This document shows positions 3,151 to 30,892 of a stretch of DNA of 31,218 nt, in pieces. The notes under the pieces are model-generated. The model searched no databases and was not told where the DNA came from. It was given only the letters and a program-made list of their open reading frames with translations. Each line of letters begins with the position of its first letter. The first letter of the stretch is position 1. Origin of the DNA: Gammaproteobacteria bacterium (GTDB lineage Bacteria > Pseudomonadota > Gammaproteobacteria > JALTLT01); assembly GCA_027001815.1 (NCBI GenBank), contig JALTLT010000461.1:1-31218 (forward strand), given 5' to 3'. Position numbers and translations under genes: made by a program.

Positions 3151-4926
3151 ATGAAGAGATCGTATGCCCATGGCATTCAGCCGCCGGATCTGTCGCGCCG
3201 CCGTTTCCTCGGCGGCGTGCTGGCCGGGGGGGCCGCACTGACGCTGCCCCCGCTCTCGTCGCCGGCTCTGGCGGCGCGGGCCGCGGATACCCGGACCGGC
3301 ATGGCGCCGGTGCTGAGCGGTACCGAGTTCCATCTTACCGTGGATCAGACCTGGGTCGATTTCACCGGCACGCCGCGCCCGGCAACGACCATCAACGGCT
3401 CCATTCCGGCGCCTGTCTTGCGCTGGCGGGAGGGGGAAACGGTCACCATCCGGATCACCAATCGGCTGCCGGTCTCCACCTCCATTCACTGGCACGGCAT
3501 TATCCTGCCCTACCGGATGGACGGTGTGCCCGGGGTCAGCTTCCCCGGCATTGCACCCGGTGAGACCTTCGTCTACCGCTTCAAGGTGGGGCAGGCCGGT
3601 ACCTACTGGTATCACTCGCACACCGCCTTCCAGGAGCAGACCGGCATGTATGGTGCGATCATCGTCGAGCCGCGCGGGGGTGAGCGCATCCGTGCCGACC
3701 GGGACTACGTGGTGCAGCTCTCCGACTGGACCGACGAGGATCCGCTGGATGTGTTCGCCAAGCTCAAGAAGCAGAGTGACTATTACAACTTCAATCAGGT
3801 GACGGTGGGAGACTTCTTCCGGGACGTCTCCACCCTCGGCCTTTCGGGTGCCCTGCGCAAGCGCGCCATGTGGAACCGCATGCGCATGAACCCCACCGAC
3901 CTGGCCGACATCTCCGCCTACACCTACACCTACCTCATGAACGGCACGACCCCACGTGGCAACTGGACTGCGCTCTTCCGGACGGGCGACCGGGTCCGGC
4001 TGCGGTTTATCGGAAGCGCGACCCAGAGCTTCTTCGACGTACGGATTCCTGGCCTGAAGATGACGGTCGTGCATGTGGATGGACAGGATATCGAACCGGT
4101 CACCGTCGACGAGTTCCGCATCGGCCCCGGGGAGACCTATGACGTGATCGTCGAGCCCGAAGGAGATACCGCCTATACCATTTTTGCCCAGTCCATGGAT
4201 CGCACCGGGTATGCGCGCGGGACACTCGCCCCAAGGGCGGACATGGAGGCGCCGGTACCCCCACTCGACGAGTCCCAGTGGCTGACCATGCGGGACATGA
4301 TGGGCGCCATGGCGGGCGGGGAGGGCGCGTCGATGAAGGGGATGGCCGGTGCCGGTGGGATGGATCACATGGCGATGGGTTACGGATCCGGGGCGATGAG
4401 CCCGGTACATGCGCGACACGCGAAGACCGAATACGGACCCAGCGTCGACATGCGCGTCGACATGCCGAGGACCAATCTCGACGACCCCGGCATCGGGCTG
4501 CGTGACAACGGCCGTCGGGTGCTCACCTACGCCGACATCCGCACACCTACAGGCCCCCTCGACGCGCGCGAACCGGAGAGAGAGATCGAACTCCATCTCA
4601 CCGGCAACATGGAACGTTACACCTGGTCCCTCGATGGCTTGGAGTTCGGCAAGTCCACACCGATCCACTTCCGGCACGGCGAGCGGCTGCGGGTCATTCT
4701 GCACAACGACACCATGATGACCCATCCGATGCATCTGCACGGGATGTGGAGCGAGCTCGAGGATCCCGAGGGGCGCTTTCTCGCGCGCAGGCACACCATC
4801 AGTGTGCAGCCGGCCCAGCGCATCTCCTTCCGGGTGACGGCGGATGCCCTCGGGCGCTGGGCCTGGCACTGCCATCTCCTCTATCACATGGATGCCGGCA
4901 TGTTTCGTGAAGTGGTCGTGGCCTGA
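3151..4926 (+). CDS. copA: Copper-resistance multicopper oxidase (CopA/PcoA family), Tat-exported
   Basis: Tat motif SRRRFL; copper ligand motifs HWHG, YWYHSH, HPMHLHG, WAWHCHLLYHM; Met-rich insert; AGGAGG RBS before ATG 3151. Confidence 0.95.
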   Translation: MKRSYAHGIQPPDLSRRRFLGGVLAGGAALTLPPLSSPALAARAADTRTGMAPVLSGTEFHLTVDQTWVDFTGTPRPATTINGSIPAPVLRWREGETVTIRITNRLPVSTSIHWHGIILPYRMDGVPGVSFPGIAPGETFVYRFKVGQAGTYWYHSHTAFQEQTGMYGAIIVEPRGGERIRADRDYVVQLSDWTDEDPLDVFAKLKKQSDYYNFNQVTVGDFFRDVSTLGLSGALRKRAMWNRMRMNPTDLADISAYTYTYLMNGTTPRGNWTALFRTGDRVRLRFIGSATQSFFDVRIPGLKMTVVHVDGQDIEPVTVDEFRIGPGETYDVIVEPEGDTAYTIFAQSMDRTGYARGTLAPRADMEAPVPPLDESQWLTMRDMMGAMAGGEGASMKGMAGAGGMDHMAMGYGSGAMSPVHARHAKTEYGPSVDMRVDMPRTNLDDPGIGLRDNGRRVLTYADIRTPTGPLDAREPEREIELHLTGNMERYTWSLDGLEFGKSTPIHFRHGERLRVILHNDTMMTHPMHLHGMWSELEDPEGRFLARRHTISVQPAQRISFRVTADALGRWAWHCHLLYHMDAGMFREVVVA

Positions 4927-4958
4927 GCCACCGCAGCAGAGAGACGGAGAAGAAGACC

Positions 4959-5840
4959 ATGAAAATCACATGCTTCAAGGTGCTTTCGGGAGGGCTCCTG
5001 ATTTTCGGAAGTACCGTGGCCTGGGCCGCCCCGGCAACGGATGGGGCCCCATCACCCATGATGAACGATTCCATACCCATGGCCGAATCCGCGGGGTCCA
5101 TGAAGATGGGGCGAATGCAGGGTGGCTTGCCGCCTCCGGACGCGCGAGACCCTCACGCCTACTCCGACGGATACGACTTCGGAGATGCCGGGCGTCCCCA
5201 CTTTGCCGATGAGCAGCGTTTCGGCTCCCTGCTTGCCAATCGGATGGAGGTCTATGAGCAGGATGGTGCTACCACTGCCGTCTATGACCTCCAGCTCTGG
5301 TACGGCTACGACTATGACCGTCTCGTGGTCAAGGCGGAGGGAGATATCACCGACGGCAAGATCGAGGAGGCCAGTACCGAGCTGCTCTGGTCTCACGCAG
5401 TGGCCTCCTTCTGGGACATGCAGCTTGGTGTGCGCCATGACAGCGGCGAGCTGCCCGATCAGGGCTGGCTGGCGCTCGGGATCCAGGGGTTGGCGCCCTA
5501 CTGGTTCGAGGTCGATACAACTGCCTATTTCGGCGAGGAGAGTCGCACGGCCATCAACGTCGAACTTGAGTATGAACTGCTTTTCACCCAGAAGCTCATC
5601 CTGCAGCCCCGTATCGAGATGAACTGGTACGGAAAGGAAGATCTCGAGCGGGGGATCGGAGAGGGGTTCTCCGATGCAAGCGCCGGCCTGCGGCTCCGCT
5701 ACGAGTTTCGTCGGGAATTTGCCCCATATATCGGAATCGAACGATTCCGGCGCTATGGGAACACCCGGGAGTTGGTGAAGGAATCAGGAGCTGATCCGGA
5801 CGATACGCGGGTAGTGGCGGGAATTCGATTCTGGTTCTGA
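4959..5840 (+). CDS. copB: Outer-membrane copper resistance protein B (CopB/PcoB)
   Basis: Signal peptide, Met-rich N-terminus, PHAYSDG motif, GIQGLAPYWFEVD, LRLRYEFRREFAPYIG, C-terminal GIRFWF; directly downstream of copA. Confidence 0.92.
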   Translation: MKITCFKVLSGGLLIFGSTVAWAAPATDGAPSPMMNDSIPMAESAGSMKMGRMQGGLPPPDARDPHAYSDGYDFGDAGRPHFADEQRFGSLLANRMEVYEQDGATTAVYDLQLWYGYDYDRLVVKAEGDITDGKIEEASTELLWSHAVASFWDMQLGVRHDSGELPDQGWLALGIQGLAPYWFEVDTTAYFGEESRTAINVELEYELLFTQKLILQPRIEMNWYGKEDLERGIGEGFSDASAGLRLRYEFRREFAPYIGIERFRRYGNTRELVKESGADPDDTRVVAGIRFWF

Positions 5841-23278: not shown

Positions 23279-25669
23279 TTAGCCGAGGAGGGAATCCGCT
23301 TCCCCCGGCGAGCCGGCGGGGGGAGGGGAGGGAAACCACCCATCCCGGATCATCCGCTGCAGATGTGACAGGGGCATGGGGCGGGCGAAGTGGAAGCCCT
23401 GGAACCGGTCGCAACCGGCGTCGCGCAGCCGCGCCGCCTGTTGCCGGTTCTCCACCCCCTCGGCAAGGACCGGAATGTCGAGGCTTCGGCCGAGGTCGAT
23501 GATTCCCATGATGAGCTTGTAGTCCTGGGAGTCGGTGAGGATGTTCTGGACGAATTCGCGATCGATCTTGAGTTCGGAGAGAGGGAGCCGGGTGAGGAGA
23601 CTGAGCGAGGAGTAACCGGTTCCGAAATCGTCCAGGGAGATCTCCATGCCCTCGCCGCGCAGCCGGTCGAGCCGCTCCCGTGCGTGTTCCAGGTCGTGGA
23701 TGAAGAGGCTCTCGGTCACCTCGATCACCAGCGTGCGGGTGGGGTGGTGGTAGTTGCGGCAGAGGGCGATCATCGCATCCACGAACCCTTCGTCGCGGAG
23801 CTGGCTGGCGGAGACGTTGAGCGCGATGCGGAAATTTCGGGAGGCCTCTGCGAGAGGGATCAGGGAGGCGGAGTCGACCAGCGCCTTTTCGGTCACCATG
23901 AGGCCGATCTCCCGCATCAGGCCCATGTTCTCGGCGATCGGAATGAACCGGTCGGGGGGGATGTCGCCCAGCGTGTCGTGGTGCCAGCGCACCAGGGCCT
24001 CCGCACCGACGATCTCGCCGCTCCTGGCATCGATCTGGGGCTGATAGACGACGGAGAACTCCCCCCGTTCCAGGGCACCCGCCAGCGCCTGTTCGATCCT
24101 CGTGTCCCCCCCGGTCTGGTCTTCGAGGCGGGGCTGGTAGTGGAAGATGCCTGCATGGAGGCGCTTGGCCTCGTACATCGCCATGTCCGCCCGGCGGAGC
24201 AGCTCTTCGAGCCGCGTGCCGTCGCGGGGTGCCCGGGCGATGCCGATGCTGGCGCGGATGGAGAACTGCATCTCGCCGCACGCGATCGGCGTTCGGAGAG
24301 CGGCCAGAAAGCGTCGGCAGATCGTCTCGAGCTGCTCCTTCGGCACCGCCTCCCAGAGGACGATGAACTCGTCCCCACCCTGGCGGAAGACGCAGTGGTC
24401 GCCGAAATGGTGCTGCAGGCGAACCCCCACCTCGCGCAGGATCGCGTCGCCCACCGAGTGTCCGTGCAGGTCGTTGATCCCCTTGAAGTTGTCCAGGTCG
24501 ATGAAGAGCAGGGAGAAGCCCTGCCTGCGGCTCATGGACCATTCCGGGAAACGGTCGCTCAGGTTGCGGCGGTTCGGCAGGCGGGTCAACTGATCGTGAC
24601 TCGCCAGGTAGGCCAGCTCCGCCTCGTTCCTCCGCTGTTGGCGGATGGCGGCGCGGAAGATCAAATAGAGCAACCCGTTGAAGATCAGCAGCAGCCCGAG
24701 GGTCCAGAGCGCCTGGCGCGAGAAGCGCAGGAGGACTTCGGTGAGCGGCATCGCCGTGAGGGTGTAGTAGCCGTAGAGGCTCGTGTAGCCGATGCAGACC
24801 CGCCCCCAGTTGCCGCGGAAATCGGGGGCATAGAGATGGACCTTGCTTCCCTCCTCCGGACGGCTGGTGATAGAGAGGCCCTGCCGGGCCAGCAGTCGGT
24901 CGTAGATCTCCAGAACCCTCTGGCTGATGGGGGAGGCGTAGTAGGCCTCCATCTCGGGACCCGAGATGTAGGATCCGTACTGTCGGTACATGTCCTCCCG
25001 GATCACCGCGAAACGGATCGGGGCGGGTACCGACTCCTTCGACCAGAGGCTCTCGCCGGCGCCGAGTCTCAGTCCCGTGGTGATGACCGCCACCACCCGC
25101 CCCTCGCCATCGCGCAGGGGGTAGCGCATGGGGATAATCCAGCCGCCGGCCGTCGGCAGATGGTAGGTCCTGCCGATCACCATCCGCTCCGCGTCGAGCG
25201 CCTTCGAGAAGGTGTCCGAGGTGCGTGGGTCGAGGGCCAGGTTGGGGACCCGTGAGCGATCGAGGTTTTGGGTGGTGAGAATCAGGTTGCCCTCGGGATC
25301 TGCCAGCCCGAAGCCCGCGAGCTCGGGGTTGCGCTGCAGAAGACGGTCGATCAGCTCGCGCGCGCGGGGTGAGTCGCGCAGGCCTTCCAGCTCCAGCAGC
25401 CGTTCACCGAGAACCTCCAGCAGCGTCTCGTACTTGCGCATCACCATCTGCAGGGAGTTGATAATCTGGTCGTTGGCGCTGGAGAGTTCCAGTGACACCT
25501 CTTCCTCGATGTTGCGCCACTGCAGGAACAGCACCGCTACTCCCAGGAGCAGCGAGGTGGCACCGACGAAGAAGTAGAGCCGCCACCAGGCGTGGAGTGG
25601 CCGCGCGCTCCTCGTGGAGAGTGAGTGACTCTTCCGTTCACTCGTCTGGGGAGGTGGGAGACTCGCCAT
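23279..25669 (-). CDS. Membrane-bound GGDEF-EAL (diguanylate cyclase/phosphodiesterase) protein with a periplasmic Cache-like sensor
   Basis: Two TM segments flanking a ~270-aa sensor region; SHDQLTRLPNRR, FIDLDNFKGINDLHGH.VGD, GGDEF; EALVRW, DDFGTGYSS, ELKIDR, AEGVE. Start ATG 25669 (or 25690). Confidence 0.9.
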   Translation of the reverse strand: MASLPPPQTSERKSHSLSTRSARPLHAWWRLYFFVGATSLLLGVAVLFLQWRNIEEEVSLELSSANDQIINSLQMVMRKYETLLEVLGERLLELEGLRDSPRARELIDRLLQRNPELAGFGLADPEGNLILTTQNLDRSRVPNLALDPRTSDTFSKALDAERMVIGRTYHLPTAGGWIIPMRYPLRDGEGRVVAVITTGLRLGAGESLWSKESVPAPIRFAVIREDMYRQYGSYISGPEMEAYYASPISQRVLEIYDRLLARQGLSITSRPEEGSKVHLYAPDFRGNWGRVCIGYTSLYGYYTLTAMPLTEVLLRFSRQALWTLGLLLIFNGLLYLIFRAAIRQQRRNEAELAYLASHDQLTRLPNRRNLSDRFPEWSMSRRQGFSLLFIDLDNFKGINDLHGHSVGDAILREVGVRLQHHFGDHCVFRQGGDEFIVLWEAVPKEQLETICRRFLAALRTPIACGEMQFSIRASIGIARAPRDGTRLEELLRRADMAMYEAKRLHAGIFHYQPRLEDQTGGDTRIEQALAGALERGEFSVVYQPQIDARSGEIVGAEALVRWHHDTLGDIPPDRFIPIAENMGLMREIGLMVTEKALVDSASLIPLAEASRNFRIALNVSASQLRDEGFVDAMIALCRNYHHPTRTLVIEVTESLFIHDLEHARERLDRLRGEGMEISLDDFGTGYSSLSLLTRLPLSELKIDREFVQNILTDSQDYKLIMGIIDLGRSLDIPVLAEGVENRQQAARLRDAGCDRFQGFHFARPMPLSHLQRMIRDGWFPSPPPAGSPGEADSLLG

Positions 25670-25759
25670 TCCGTGATCAGGGGGGCGCAACCTGGAGAGG
25701 GAGAAGGTGCCGGTGGCCTCTTGTCCGCCAACGGGGAGGCTGCCCTCCGTCGGCCCTGG

Positions 25760-25920
25760 CAGGCCGTTGAATGGCCCTGTTTTTCGGCGGCTTGGGAGTG
25801 ATGCAGGGGTGCATTGCCGTTTCCAATGAGGTCAGGTCATTGAAAACGCGAGGAAACCGGGAGCCGCGCCTTCGGCTTCCGGCGTTGAAAAAGGCCAGGA
25901 CGGCCTCTTTCAACATCCTG
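25760..25920 (+). mobile_element. MITE-like element copy 4, full length (161 bp)
   Basis: Same length as copy 2 and aligns without gaps (about 125/161 identical by hand count; last ~50 nt nearly identical); flanks CTGG / CCAG. Confidence 0.85.
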
Positions 25921-26067
25921 CCAGACTCCCCGGAAAGCGGTCGAGGTCGCGGTGAACCTCGATCTGGCGATCCTCCCGGGAGGTGTGATTTCGAGACCGG
26001 CGCCGCCACGGGCTTGTCGTCTGAATCCATGGGGAGATTCTAGCGCCTCGCCCCTGCCGGGTTCCAG

Positions 26068-26191
26068 CAGGCTGTTTGTGGCCCAGGGAGGCACCGCCGC
26101 ATTTTCAATGCCGTCGGGGGGAGGAAGCCGGAAACCGCGTTTTCGGGCTCCCCGCGTCGAAAGAGGTCGGGACGGCCTTTTTGCCGTCCCG
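26068..26191 (+). mobile_element. MITE-like element copy 5, degenerate
   Basis: caggctgtt...gcaccgccgcattttcaatg...gaggaagccggaaaccgcgttttcgg...ggacggccttttt...cccg; flanks CCAG / CCGG. Confidence 0.7.
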
Positions 26192-26289
26192 CCGGAAGGG
26201 GAAAGGATCGCCCCCCCGTCGGTCGCGAGGCGGTGCCGGAGAGAGACGTCTCTTTCCGCTCCGCCGTCGTTCCCGGGGACGGACGGAAT

Positions 26290-26319
26290 TTGACGCATGA
26301 CGGGTCCGTGTCCTATCTT
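26290..26319 (+). promoter_or_regulatory. Sigma70 promoter candidate for the lnt-like gene
   Basis: TTGACG-N18-TATCTT, followed by GGAGG (26338-42) and GTG start 26349. Confidence 0.55.
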
Positions 26320-26348
26320 CTCGCCCACGGATTCCACGGAGGAAGGCA

Positions 26349-28478
26349 GTGTTGCCAGGGAAGGGCGATCCAGCGAGTTCCGTTACACCGGCTCCGCGAC
26401 CGCTGCCCGGGTGGGGGGTGCGAGCCGCCTTCTCCCGTCGGCGACCGCCCACCGTCATCCCCTCCCTTGCGATCCACCTGGCCGCACTTCCCGCCTTCCT
26501 CCTGGCCACCCTCTCCTTCCCGCCTCTGCAGCTCTGGCCCGCGGGGCTTGTCGCGCTCGCGCCCCTGATGTGGGCGTTGCCTCGTCTTTCGGCCGGCTGG
26601 GCCCTGGTCAACGGCATGCTCTTCGGCGCATGGACGGGGGGGTACGCCTTCTGGGGCGGGTACGCCTATCATCCCCTCGCCTGGCTCGCGGTGGTCGCCG
26701 CCTGCGGTCTCGTCATGGGGATCGCCGGTTGGGCGTTCCGGCGGCTGGCGACTCTTGGCGGCGGCTGGCTGGCCCCCCTGCCGTGGCTGCTCGCGGAGCA
26801 GCTCCTGCAGGCGCTCGGCGTGCCCTGGAGCTTCGCCCTCATGGTGGGTGGAGAGCCTGCGCTGCTGCAGAGCGCGGCGTTCGGAGGGGCCGGCTGGATC
26901 ACCCTCTCCCTGCTGCTCCTGCAATGGGGGGGTGTGCAGGCGTGGAGGGTGCGGGGTCCCGAGCGGTACCGGCGGTTGTTCCTCGTTCTTCTCGCCCTCG
27001 TCCTGTTGTCGATCGATCCCTCCACGCCTCTCACGGGCGACCCCCTCCGGGTCGCAGTGGTGCAGACCGACATCTCCCGATCCTCTTCCGCCACCGCCGC
27101 CGATTCGGGTCGTCTCGAATCGCTCCTGGAGCAGCGGCGGAGGGGCGTCGAGCGGGCCCTGGCGCAAGAGGGGGGGGAGAGCCCCGAACTGATCGTTCTT
27201 CCCGAACTCTCCTTTCCCGGTTTCGAGTTCGTCGGCGGTGCTCCCCTCGCCGATCTCGCTCGAAGTGGCGGGGTGACCCTGCTGCTCTCTTCCCCCCATC
27301 TGCTGGCCGACGGCCGGCCGGCCAATGCGGTCTTTTCGCTCTCTCCCGACGGCAGGGTGGGCGGCATCCATCTCCAGAGCCGTACCATCCCGATCCTGGA
27401 GAGGGGCTATCTGGCGGGCAGCGAGGTGCGTCCCCTCGATTCCACCCCGGGCAGTCCGGGAACCCTGATCTGTTACGAATCGACCCTCCCCGGGCCGGCG
27501 CGGATGATGACCGCGGCGGGCGCGGGTCTGCTCGTCGTCACCAGCAGTGACGCCTATGCGGGGCCCTCCGTGCTGGCCGCGCTGCATCTGATGATGGATC
27601 GCATCCGTGCCATCGAGAATCGTCGCTATCTGGTGAGGGCTGCCAACGGGGGCCCCAGCGCGGTGATCGATCCGCGGGGCGGGATGGTTGCGCAACTCGG
27701 AGTGTTCGAGGAAGGGGTCCTGCACGCCTCCGTCACCATCCACGAGGAGTTGTCACCCTACAGTCGACACGCTCTCCTTTTCCACATGCTCTGGTGGCTG
27801 GCCGGTCTGACGGCGCTGGCGGTCGCGTTTCTGGGTGGTGGAGCCGTGATCCGCGGGGAGGGATCCGCCACACGCCACGCGCGGGGAGGTGCGGCCGCCG
27901 TCGCCTCCACGGGTGTACTGGCCCTCCTCCCTCTGGTCGTCGCGCTGCAGTGGCAGCACCAGAAGGTGGCGGCCGATTTCCGCCCCGCGGGCAGGGAGGG
28001 AGCGCCCGGGCCTCTCTTTCTCGACCCGTTTCCCGGGGCGGAGGGGTGGCGATTCGAGACGTTTCCGCAGGTCTCCACCCTGCCGGAGGCGGAGGCCGCG
28101 GCGCTGGCCCTGTTGATGCGCCTCTACGGCCGCCCGGTGAGTCCCGCCCGGCTCCTCGAGGAAGGGCACTCGTCGCTGGAAGGGATGGCCAGGCGTCACG
28201 GGCTCTGTGCTAGGCTCCTGGAGAGTCGGCCGACCGGTTCGCAGGGGGGGCGTTCGCCATGGCTGGCCAGGCTCTCCTCCGGCTGGCCGGTGACGGTTCG
28301 CGAGATGGACGAGCGGGCCGTACTGCTCTTCGACCCCCGCCGGCGAGGGTGGGTGATCCTCAGGACGGAGGCCTTCCTCGAGGTGCTGGGCTGGCAGGCG
28401 CTTCGTCTGGTCGCCTGTGGAGAGGGCCGAGATCCCCCGCTCGGCCGATCCTCCCGCCAGCAGCCTGTCGGCCTTTGA
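26349..28478 (+). CDS. lnt: Apolipoprotein N-acyltransferase (Lnt)-like protein fused to a C-terminal, apparently non-catalytic peptidase C39-like domain
   Basis: Multiple N-terminal TMs; VAVVQTDI, IVLPE, LICYES, RAIENRRYLVRAANGGPSAVIDPRG; then two TMs and EAEAAALALLMRLYG...VLLFDP resembling the C39 fold. Divergent paralogue; the symbol marks the family only. Confidence 0.75.
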   Translation: MLPGKGDPASSVTPAPRPLPGWGVRAAFSRRRPPTVIPSLAIHLAALPAFLLATLSFPPLQLWPAGLVALAPLMWALPRLSAGWALVNGMLFGAWTGGYAFWGGYAYHPLAWLAVVAACGLVMGIAGWAFRRLATLGGGWLAPLPWLLAEQLLQALGVPWSFALMVGGEPALLQSAAFGGAGWITLSLLLLQWGGVQAWRVRGPERYRRLFLVLLALVLLSIDPSTPLTGDPLRVAVVQTDISRSSSATAADSGRLESLLEQRRRGVERALAQEGGESPELIVLPELSFPGFEFVGGAPLADLARSGGVTLLLSSPHLLADGRPANAVFSLSPDGRVGGIHLQSRTIPILERGYLAGSEVRPLDSTPGSPGTLICYESTLPGPARMMTAAGAGLLVVTSSDAYAGPSVLAALHLMMDRIRAIENRRYLVRAANGGPSAVIDPRGGMVAQLGVFEEGVLHASVTIHEELSPYSRHALLFHMLWWLAGLTALAVAFLGGGAVIRGEGSATRHARGGAAAVASTGVLALLPLVVALQWQHQKVAADFRPAGREGAPGPLFLDPFPGAEGWRFETFPQVSTLPEAEAAALALLMRLYGRPVSPARLLEEGHSSLEGMARRHGLCARLLESRPTGSQGGRSPWLARLSSGWPVTVREMDERAVLLFDPRRRGWVILRTEAFLEVLGWQALRLVACGEGRDPPLGRSSRQQPVGL

Positions 28479-28646: not shown

Positions 28647-29618
28647 ATGAGCGATCCAAACCCATGCCTGCCGTTCGACGGCAGAGACCCTTTTCGAACC
28701 ACGCCCCACGCCGAGGTCCGCAGGCTTCCCCTGGCCGAAGAGTTGGTGAGAGAGCCGGTTCCGATCGGTGCCGGCGGCAACTCCAGGCTGTTCCGTCTCG
28801 ACACGTCGGCGGGCGCACTCACCCTCAAGGTCCTGCGGCCCTCCCTGGCGCGCTACGCCCAGCACCGGGCGCGCTTTCTCGAGGAGGCACTCCTCCTGCG
28901 GCGCCTCCGGCGGGTGGAAGGGGTACCCCGTTTCGCGGGCAGTGGGCGTTGGCAGGGTCAGCCGGTCATCGCCTACCAGCATGTGACGGGTGTCTCCCTG
29001 CAGCGATTCATGTCCGCCGCCCCCTCCAGGGGTCTGCCTCCCTTGCTGGCGGTCGAGATGACGGTGGGGCTGCTCAATGTCCTCTGTCAGCTCCACCATC
29101 CGGCTGTGGCCGTGACACACGGGGACATCAGCCTCGAGAACGTTCTTCTCGACCGACAGAGACGAATCTGGCTGATCGACTTCGGGAGCGCCGCGCCGGC
29201 GGACGCCTCGTGCCGCCGGCCCGGTTCCCTGGCCGTCAAGCCGCGCTGTCTCTCTCCGGAGCAGGCGAAAGGGCATCCCTGGGCGGAGGCGAGTGATCTC
29301 TACCAGGTGGGACTGGTGTTCTACCGGCTTCTCACCGGCCGGCATCTCAATCCGGGGCGCGTACCGGCGAGGGCGAGGGTGTTCGCCGCCAATCCGCCCC
29401 CGGTGGACTATCGGGGCGTGCATCCCGCCCTTCGGACCTTTCTGGCCAACCTCCTCGATCCCGACCCACGGAACCGGTGGAGCGCAGCCCCGCAGGCGAG
29501 AGACGTGTTGCAATGGATCCATGCGGAACTGGAGGAGGCGCAGTCGGGCCGGATACAGCGCTGGCGGCCGATCCTTCGAGCCACTCCGCGGCGCATCTTC
29601 AAGGGAGAGGAGAGATGA
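28647..29618 (+). CDS. Hanks-type Ser/Thr protein kinase, soluble
   Basis: IGAGGNS (Gly loop), LTLKVL (Lys), EEALLL (alpha-C Glu), HGDISLENVLL, LIDFGSA, LSPEQ, SDLYQVG; start ATG 28647; no TM segment. Confidence 0.88.
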   Translation: MSDPNPCLPFDGRDPFRTTPHAEVRRLPLAEELVREPVPIGAGGNSRLFRLDTSAGALTLKVLRPSLARYAQHRARFLEEALLLRRLRRVEGVPRFAGSGRWQGQPVIAYQHVTGVSLQRFMSAAPSRGLPPLLAVEMTVGLLNVLCQLHHPAVAVTHGDISLENVLLDRQRRIWLIDFGSAAPADASCRRPGSLAVKPRCLSPEQAKGHPWAEASDLYQVGLVFYRLLTGRHLNPGRVPARARVFAANPPPVDYRGVHPALRTFLANLLDPDPRNRWSAAPQARDVLQWIHAELEEAQSGRIQRWRPILRATPRRIFKGEER

Positions 29619-30892
29619 AAAGGGAAGTGAGGAGGCCGCTCCGCGGCTCCCAGGAAGGACAGGCCCTCGTCCTCGGTCTGGTGCTGCTCATGATCGCTCT
29701 CGCCACGGTGGTGGTGATGTACAACAACACCCAGGTCACCACCGAGAAGGTGAAGGTGGTGAATGCGGCCGACGCGGCGGCCTACAGTGGCGCGGTGTTC
29801 GTGGCCCGAAACCTCAATTTCATGGCCTATACCAATCGTGCCCTGATCGCCAATCACGTCGCGGCCGGACACTACGTCTCCATCTCCTCGTGGGTGCGCT
29901 ACATGAACGAGTCGATGGAGGATCTGGAACAGGTGGGTGACATGGTCTGGTGGATCCCCTATGTGGGGCCCTGGATCGAGCGGATCACCGACATCATGGC
30001 CGAGGTGGCCGAACAGATCGAGGAGGTGGTGGACCTGCTGGGGGGGGATGTACTCCTGCCTCTGGTGGACGGCATGGGAGGCGTGATGTCTCTCGCCCAG
30101 AGCGCGGCGGCGGGGCAGTCCCTCGGTGGTGTCACCGTGGGAGGCTTCTCCATGCCGATCGGCACCCTCATGAGGGAGGTCGCCCAGACCTACGACGACC
30201 GGATCCGGGTCAACGATTCCGGAGATCTTGGGACCACGGAGGCGGCGATCATCGCGGCCCGCATCGCGATGGAGAACGGTCGCATCATGAATGTGGTCGA
30301 ACGTACCGATGCCGCAAGTGACTCCGGGGAGCTGGAGCAGATGGTGGATCTCAGCCTTGGAGGGTCCCGTGCCTGGATCCAGGGGAATCGGGGATGGAGT
30401 CTGGAACCGCCGGTGATCAATCTCGTCTGGTGGCTGGAGAAGAGGGGTTCCACCCGCCATCTGCGAGACGGGTCGAAGCTGGACTGGGACGCCTCCGACG
30501 AACTGGTGCATCACTGGTTCAGTTTCGATCCGAAGGACTGGGGATGGCACGAGGATACCTGGGCGAGGGGTCAGACCCGGGCCAGCGACCTGGCACTCGG
30601 CGGGCGCTACGATCCGATCCCTTCCTACTACCGGACGGCGCGGAGTGAAGGGAGAGGAGCACAGGATACGGTGTTGTCGATCACCGCCTACTGCGTCCTG
30701 CCCATGGATGCCGCGCGCCAGAAGCCGCTGCTGGGCCTCGACTCCGGCGTCGACTCCATCACGCATGCCGCGGTTGCCGAGATCCATTACCAGAGGCCCC
30801 GGGCGGGTTTCGGTGGTGACATGGAGGAGTATGCGAACCTCTACAATCCCTTCTGGGAGGCCAGGCTGGCCAGTGATCTGGTATCCCTCTAG
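29615..30892 (+). CDS. Tad/Flp pilus assembly TadG-related pseudopilin-like protein
   Basis: GQALVLGLVLLMI (prepilin-like G-Q cleavage site and TM), then N.TQVTTEKVKVVNAADAAAYSGA...ARNLNFMAYTNRALIANHV; ATGA overlap with the kinase stop; GGAG RBS. Confidence 0.8.
   Translation: MKREVRRPLRGSQEGQALVLGLVLLMIALATVVVMYNNTQVTTEKVKVVNAADAAAYSGAVFVARNLNFMAYTNRALIANHVAAGHYVSISSWVRYMNESMEDLEQVGDMVWWIPYVGPWIERITDIMAEVAEQIEEVVDLLGGDVLLPLVDGMGGVMSLAQSAAAGQSLGGVTVGGFSMPIGTLMREVAQTYDDRIRVNDSGDLGTTEAAIIAARIAMENGRIMNVVERTDAASDSGELEQMVDLSLGGSRAWIQGNRGWSLEPPVINLVWWLEKRGSTRHLRDGSKLDWDASDELVHHWFSFDPKDWGWHEDTWARGQTRASDLALGGRYDPIPSYYRTARSEGRGAQDTVLSITAYCVLPMDAARQKPLLGLDSGVDSITHAAVAEIHYQRPRAGFGGDMEEYANLYNPFWEARLASDLVSL

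Follow-up and report, generated by a model that had tools for sequence, protein, structure and literature searches.

What does an apolipoprotein N-acyltransferase (Lnt) do when it carries a peptidase-like tail and is encoded beside a pilus cluster? The question is raised by a gene for a 709-aa protein in a stretch of 31,218 nucleotides from Gammaproteobacteria bacterium (GenBank assembly GCA_027001815.1, contig JALTLT010000461.1; the whole stretch is referred to as the window). An earlier note, made from the letters of the window, had described the protein as a complete Lnt-like membrane plus nitrilase module followed by a catalytically dead C39 peptidase-like domain, and had proposed a dedicated N-acylating enzyme with a specific peptide or pilin-type substrate. 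The observation was confirmed and the reading largely supported, as regards the fold of the tail, its dead residues, its periplasmic side, the existence of a separate lnt and a linkage to Tad (Flp) pilus genes. With moderate confidence, and from sequence comparison, we favor the view that the protein belongs to a family of Lnt paralogues specific to Tad clusters, acyltransferases in which a dead C39 domain would recruit the target, analogous to the Lnt paralogue AatD. The protein would thus be a known kind of enzyme in a conserved, undescribed context, with a plausible mechanism.

The C-terminal domain (~135 aa) was assigned by several routes. Pfam Peptidase_C39 (PF03412) matched the 709-aa protein below threshold (20.5 bits, E = 4.5e-4; gathering score 22); the same profile matched the C-terminal domain in 4/6 family members (best E = 3.2e-8) and, with the isolated domain of the relative P0004, passed the gathering score at 24.0 bits. 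An AlphaFold2 (AF2) model of the domain was built from a six-sequence alignment (predicted local distance difference test score, pLDDT, 76.9; predicted template modeling score, pTM, 0.74) and compared with the PDB using Foldseek. The best matches were PCAT1, the peptidase domain of ComA, LahT150, 3b79 (a Vibrio C39-like domain) and HlyB's C39-like domain (CLD), with probability 1.0, E values from 7e-6 and template modeling (TM) scores of 0.63–0.73; all of the best 29 PDB matches were papain-like, among them C39 peptidase domains and C39-like domains. Against clusters of the AlphaFold Database (AFDB), Foldseek retrieved 'Peptidase C39 domain' proteins, and protein-language-model features also assigned C39 (0.93). 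The family profile detected N-terminal domains of gammaproteobacterial ATP-binding cassette (ABC) exporters with E values down to 1e-10, and in the four inspected, as in CLDs, Thr takes the place of the catalytic Cys. AF2 run on residues 470–709 without an alignment gave an unusable model (pLDDT 52), hhalign of the family profile with the single C39 domain of an ABC exporter from the same genome gave 31% probability and aligned only the C-terminal half, and a PDB sequence-profile search with the domain returned 3b79 alone (E = 1.2). Because Pfam hidden Markov models, AF2 with Foldseek (against both PDB and AFDB) and language-model features agree, the assignment is not due to chance, and the domain is, on the strength of the model, a genuine C39/papain fold that is catalytically dead. 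One AFDB protein whose C-terminal part matches the model (A0A3B1AWK7, 700 aa) is named just 'Apolipoprotein N-acyltransferase / Copper homeostasis protein CutE'.

Reading of the codons bore out both substitutions that the earlier note had seen, Ala581 for the C39 nucleophile Cys and the loss of the catalytic His, which is Trp646 here. Among relatives, the nucleophile position is Ala, Thr or Ser in nearly all and Cys in none, with Lys in two divergent Thiodiazotropha copies, where the alignment is less certain. At the His position, no relative has His: 10/12 have Glu, and the alignment gives Asp for the two divergent Thiodiazotropha copies. Asp662 at the C39 Asp position is retained in the present copy; most relatives have Ser.

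The gene starts with GTG, 6 nt downstream of a GGAGG (Shine-Dalgarno-like) box, ends with TGA at 28476–28478 and lies in a region of ~0.65–0.70 GC content. Its Lnt-like module is complete, with matches to LNT_N, CN_hydrolase and NCBIfam TIGR00546 'lnt', the last at 136.1 bits, marginally above the cut-off of 132.9 bits. Hydropathy places two helices after the nitrilase domain (residues 476–494 and 515–533). Both had been taken as additional to Lnt; only one is, because the first corresponds to transmembrane helix 8 (TM8) of E. coli Lnt. The C terminus of canonical Lnt is cytoplasmic. The expected return of the tail to the periplasm did hold: the C39-like domain is predicted to lie on the periplasmic side of the inner membrane, because the loop between TM8 and the extra helix, TM9 (residues 498–514 here, Arg-rich), is rich in Arg/Lys in all family members in the alignment.

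A word-indexed homologue search with the C-terminal region returned only the query itself, and an exhaustive phmmer search gave one true relative and a low-complexity artefact (P0003); exhaustive and profile searches together gave five more clusters of the same architecture (P0004–P0008, 644–710 aa). More divergent versions of 631–632 aa with the same architecture were present in two Thiodiazotropha genomes. The clade of Lnt-C39 proteins comprises at least 13 members from uncultured Gammaproteobacteria. Of 400 genomes sampled evenly from the class, 6 (the present one included) have the architecture, and they belong to four GTDB families. When 90 Lnt sequences were placed in a tree, the 13 members of the family formed one clade with a Shimodaira-Hasegawa-like approximate likelihood ratio test (SH-aLRT) value of 99 (99–100 over trees), outside the separate clade of gammaproteobacterial Lnt (SH-aLRT 99). 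No Tad linkage was seen at the loci of the closest, weakly attached Lnt-like outgroups, P0060 and P0039. In agreement with the earlier note, which did not recognize the architecture as characterized, literature searches returned no description of Lnt fused to C39, of an Lnt linked to Tad or of a C39-like domain in the periplasm. The organism of the window recurs in hydrothermal vent metagenomes from several studies (runs X1–X13), with strain differences below 1% in the Lnt-like gene.

Synteny was examined at loci L026, L028–L034 and L051–L053, and at every one of them the Lnt-like gene lies in or beside one distinctive type of Tad/Flp cluster. At L026, L028–L032 and L051–L053, a Pkinase gene lies directly downstream of the Lnt-like gene, overlapping it by 4 bp where gene calls are on record (L026, L051, L053), and the pair is divergent to the adjoining Tad cluster. 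The cluster order is ~93-aa Flp pilin, TadG-like protein, u256, TadE/F-like protein, u241, ~52–56-aa Flp pilin, RcpC, secretin, FHA-TadA, TadB and TadC. In the two Thiodiazotropha genomes, the Lnt-like gene heads the cluster on the same strand, and the kinase gene was not found at these two loci.

In the window itself, the order is Lnt-like gene, kinase gene, TadG-like gene and contig end, and the TadG-like protein is 38–40% identical to the TadG-like proteins of all related clusters. Two other contigs of the same assembly (G000) carry further cluster genes: C425 has genes for a TadE/F-like protein, a u241-like protein and a short Flp pilin and the 5′ part of rcpC, and C486 has the 3′ part of rcpC followed by genes for the secretin, FHA-TadA, TadB and TadC. 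The gene order across the window, C425 and C486 is consistent with one collinear operon. Homologues of the ~93-aa Flp pilin and u256 were not found in G000 with one query each and may lie in the assembly gap between the end of the window and C425.

Several features of these clusters were recorded alongside. In the clusters where TadA was checked, the Lnt-coupled kinase co-occurs with a TadA/CpaF ATPase (in G000, C486:5314–6984; L054, L057) bearing N-terminal FHA (phosphothreonine-binding) domains. The arrangement suggests that the Ser/Thr kinase controls the pilus motor. The ~93-aa Flp pilin (L026:9210–9488, L053:9481–9768, L033:~5487–5723 and equivalents) has a highly conserved segment after its transmembrane helix, GD-x-x-S-N-Q-M…E-I-x-G, and a variable tail of ~30 aa that ends in the conserved motif L/M-x-N-Y/F-x-x-x-N. 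A motif in this tail resembling a double-glycine leader was considered and dropped, as its hydrophobic spacing is off consensus. The exported protein u256 belongs to a family without a name (L026, L028, L029, L032, L051 and L053; for example L053:7362–8147) and has a conserved Cys a few residues past the predicted signal-peptide cleavage site; this is Cys-Pro in 5/6 copies read and is not a canonical lipobox. At L053, a DUF192 gene follows tadC. Upstream of the Lnt-like gene of the window, a membrane GGDEF-EAL protein is encoded divergently (23279–25690, minus strand), and the ~660 bp between the two genes (25691–26348) contain no convincing open reading frame (ORF) and no Flp-like gene.

The active site was compared with E. 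coli Lnt, whose numbering is used here unless the residue is named for the present copy. Glu267, Glu343 and Cys387 are kept in 13/13 clade members and Lys335 in 12/13, the sole exception being the present copy, which has Gln343 at this position. The span from Glu343 to the Cys is 25 residues in 13/13 clade members vs 45 in E. coli and four canonical Lnts; by alignment, the loss of 20 residues is a clean deletion of the mobile 345–365 arm (lid loop) of Lnt. Trp415-Phe416 is replaced by Tyr-Ala in 13/13 members, Trp237 is absent from most (Ala in the present copy), and the family has active-site motifs of its own, DAYAGPS and ANGGPS. In Lnt, Lys335 is part of the oxyanion hole in both half-reactions, Trp237, the 345–365 arm, Trp415 and Glu343 frame the apolipoprotein entry portal, and the one step that requires Trp237 is the second, transfer to the acceptor (PMC6971011). 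Replacement of the catalytic Lys by Ala abolishes Lnt function (as cited in PMC7943197). The family thus appears to keep the machinery that forms the acyl-enzyme and to have rebuilt its acceptor side, and this rebuilding, combined with the gain of a peptide-binding fold that faces the same membrane side, suggests a new acceptor.

The Gln343 codon showed no difference in contigs of vent runs X1, X3, X5 and X6 (four metagenomes from four studies), with strain differences nearby. Across the whole gene, these metagenomes had 8 synonymous and 8 non-synonymous, mostly conservative differences and no indels, frameshifts or stops. Because the codon is the same and the frame intact in all four, Gln343 is real and the gene is maintained. 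Since Gln replaces the oxyanion-hole Lys, the acyltransferase activity of the present copy is doubtful; as an acyltransferase it is probably slow or inactive.

If the family is a Tad cluster-specific set of acyltransferases, as we favor, its enzymes would form an acyl-thioester from phospholipid, as is expected because Glu, Lys and Cys are kept. The acyl chain would then pass to an amine of a Tad-system protein, and not to diacylglyceryl-Cys lipoproteins. The dead C39 domain would stand in for the lost 345–365 arm and recruit the target, in the manner of the HlyB CLD, which binds its substrate. In the present genome, the Gln copy may mainly bind or scaffold within the pilus machinery. A fuller version would make this a new lipidation step in Tad/Flp biogenesis: the C39 domain would read a conserved peptide in one of the Tad proteins, such as TadG, an exported cluster protein or the conserved tail of the ~93-aa Flp pilin, and so guide N-acylation of that protein, with the kinase and FHA-TadA regulating the machine from the cytoplasm; in that full form the reading is judged unlikely. 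Several points weigh against an acyltransferase with a Tad acceptor. Gln343 argues against catalysis in the present copy. The exported cluster proteins that were inspected, of the u241, u256 and secretin families, show neither a lipobox nor an N-terminal Gly that is conserved, and no acceptor, pilin or otherwise, was found. Mature Flp N termini arise on the cytoplasmic face, beyond reach of a periplasmic active site. Prediction of a complex between the C39-like domain and the periplasmic tail of the ~93-aa Flp pilin gave a score of 0.00, which is no answer and weighs neither for nor against binding.

The alternative that the 709-aa protein is an ordinary housekeeping Lnt with a lineage-specific C-terminal decoration draws on the assembly, which is fragmented (496 contigs, 95% complete) and in which the gene is the sole match above the TIGR00546 cut-off. 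However, on contig C164 of this assembly, a canonical lnt comes after corC/ybeX (4322–5161) and is truncated by the contig end at 5436, so that its first ~80 codons are present (46% identity to a relative's Lnt; loci L048, L049). Most of the true lnt is absent from the assembly. In 4/5 other carrier genomes (G041, G042, G044, G045), a complete canonical lnt follows corC and scores 309–319 bits, and the long paralogue is also present and scores 157–165 bits. Together with the position of the protein outside the gammaproteobacterial Lnt clade, the missing catalytic Lys and the deleted arm, this makes the alternative scarcely credible. By sequence, then, and in line with the hypothesis of the earlier note, the 709-aa protein is not the housekeeping Lnt, and the start of the canonical gene that was to be sought beside corC/ybeX is there.

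Harder to set aside is the idea of a pseudoenzyme, in which no acyl transfer takes place in the present copy, or possibly in the whole family, and the protein is a Tad assembly factor of the inner membrane and periplasm, binding for example pilin, RcpC, secretin or peptidoglycan through its papain-like domain. GspA/GspB (ExeAB/EpsAB) assist secretin assembly in the T2SS (type II secretion system), and the periplasmic domain of EpsAB (4g54) is also in the Foldseek list (E = 4.9e-3, TM score 0.55). That domain is filed as papain-like in a published classification (PMC10318531 supplement). The same reading draws on the Lys-to-Gln change, identical in four metagenomes, on the loss of the lid arm in all clade members, and on the fact that no homologue of tadV (prepilin peptidase), tadZ or tadD was seen in the examined parts of the clusters (L026, L053 and others; 10-kb flanks). 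However, the EpsAB match is far weaker than those to true C39 domains, and the strict retention of Glu, Lys, Cys and Glu343 in the 12 other members, together with DAYAGPS and ANGGPS, is hard to explain without catalysis; a scaffold is possible but somewhat unlikely. Catalysis could also be sought in the tail, as a hydrolase or transferase that processes a periplasmic Tad peptide through other residues (Ser-Gly-Glu and Ser-Pro motifs), and most members do conserve SGE and FSP motifs where the active site used to be. Yet Cys or His stands at the catalytic positions in no member, the present copy has Trp for Glu and Asp for Ser at those sites, and we know of no precedent for Ser/Glu catalysis in a C39 fold, so an active tail is judged very unlikely. 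The favored reading remains the Tad-specific acyltransferase family with a recruiting C39 domain.

Table 1. Positions of the Lnt-like gene, its domains and residues, and the genes downstream (window coordinates)
Feature	Position	Strand	Basis and remarks
Whole gene, Tad-linked Lnt paralogue with C-terminal C39-like domain	26349–28478	+	709 aa; ORF and translation
Lnt N-terminal membrane domain LNT_N (PF20154), residues 51–191	26499–26921	+	Pfam E = 4.2e-8; hydrophobic segments
Periplasmic nitrilase-type CN_hydrolase (PF00795), residues 234–463	27048–27737	+	Pfam E = 5.9e-24
Catalytic Glu286 (E. coli E267), conserved	27204–27206	+	Alignment with E. coli Lnt and 12 family members
Gln343 (CAG) at catalytic Lys position (E. 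coli K335)	27375–27377	+	Alignment, codon read
Glu351 (E. coli E343) to catalytic Cys375 (E. coli C387; 27471–27473)	27399–27473	+	25-residue span, 345–365 arm deleted
TM8, final helix of canonical Lnt, periplasm to cytoplasm	27774–27839	+	Aligns with E. coli Lnt residues ~484–504; hydropathy
Extra TM9, predicted to take chain back to periplasm	27891–27953	+	Hydropathy; family loop composition
Predicted periplasmic C39-like (papain-fold) domain without catalytic residues, residues 563–697	28035–28439	+	Pfam, AF2 and Foldseek, AFDB, protein-language-model features
Ala581 (GCG) at C39 nucleophile Cys position	28089–28091	+	Alignment, codon read
Trp646 at C39 catalytic His position	28284–28286	+	Alignment, codon read
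Hanks-type Ser/Thr kinase (Pkinase)	28647–29618	+	Pfam; 168-bp gap after Lnt-like gene
TadG-like protein, N-terminal Tad domain (PF13400)	29615–30892	+	Pfam; start overlaps kinase stop (ATGA)

Lnt is regarded as a single-purpose housekeeping enzyme, and AatD is, to our knowledge, the first known Lnt paralogue with a substrate of its own. If the favored reading is true, the present clade would be a second, independent such paralogue after AatD, the first with a link to a type IV filament machine, and also the first case in which the acceptor-handling arm was swapped for a recruited peptide-binding domain. Many bacteria, chemosynthetic symbionts (Thiodiazotropha) among them, adhere by means of Tad pili, and the family gives a handle by which a possible lipid modification of these pili, or a new assembly factor in them, can be tested. 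The natural Lys-to-Gln variant is a ready comparison of catalytic and non-catalytic roles. The database name 'apolipoprotein N-acyltransferase/CutE' is misleading and hides the family.

Compared with E. coli Lnt (b0657; TIGR00546; PDB 5N6H, 5XHQ and 5VRG), the family shares the membrane and periplasmic nitrilase domains and the conserved Glu, Cys and Glu343. It differs in forming a separate clade, in the arm deletion, W415Y and F416A, in the extra TM9 and periplasmic C39-like domain, and in being encoded in a Tad cluster and not beside corC, in genomes where canonical lnt coexists; the present copy in addition lacks Trp237 and has Gln for Lys. The tail has the same fold as the C39 domains of peptidase-containing ABC transporters (PCAT1, ComA, LahT) and shares with CLDs of HlyB-type type I secretion system (T1SS) exporters (PDB 3zua and 3b79) both the fold and the absence of the catalytic Cys. 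However, in ABC exporters such domains, peptidase or C39-like, lie in the cytoplasm and N-terminal to the exporter, whereas the Lnt-C39 family would place this fold in the periplasm, C-terminal to an Lnt module. GspA/EpsAB (4g54) resembles it in that a membrane protein working for a secretin-containing machine related to type IV filaments has a papain-like domain in the periplasm, but the match is much weaker, GspA is an AAA+ protein and there is no Lnt module.

The closest likeness in function is to AatD, the Lnt paralogue that belongs to the Aat system for dispersin/CexE export in enteroaggregative and enterotoxigenic E. coli (EAEC/ETEC). It occurs in cells also possessing Lnt, and once signal peptidase I has cleaved CexE/Aap, AatD acylates the Gly at the N terminus, with no lipobox (PMC7943197). 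Kinship of the family with AatD (L079:8237–9451) was rejected, as BLAST gave no match and the long branch of AatD falls elsewhere in the tree. AatD is shorter (404 aa), has no C39-like domain and is partnered with a T1SS/Lol hybrid and not with a Tad pilus. As a system-dedicated Lnt paralogue that is encoded with its system and coexists with Lnt, it nonetheless provides the best functional precedent for the Lnt-C39 family.

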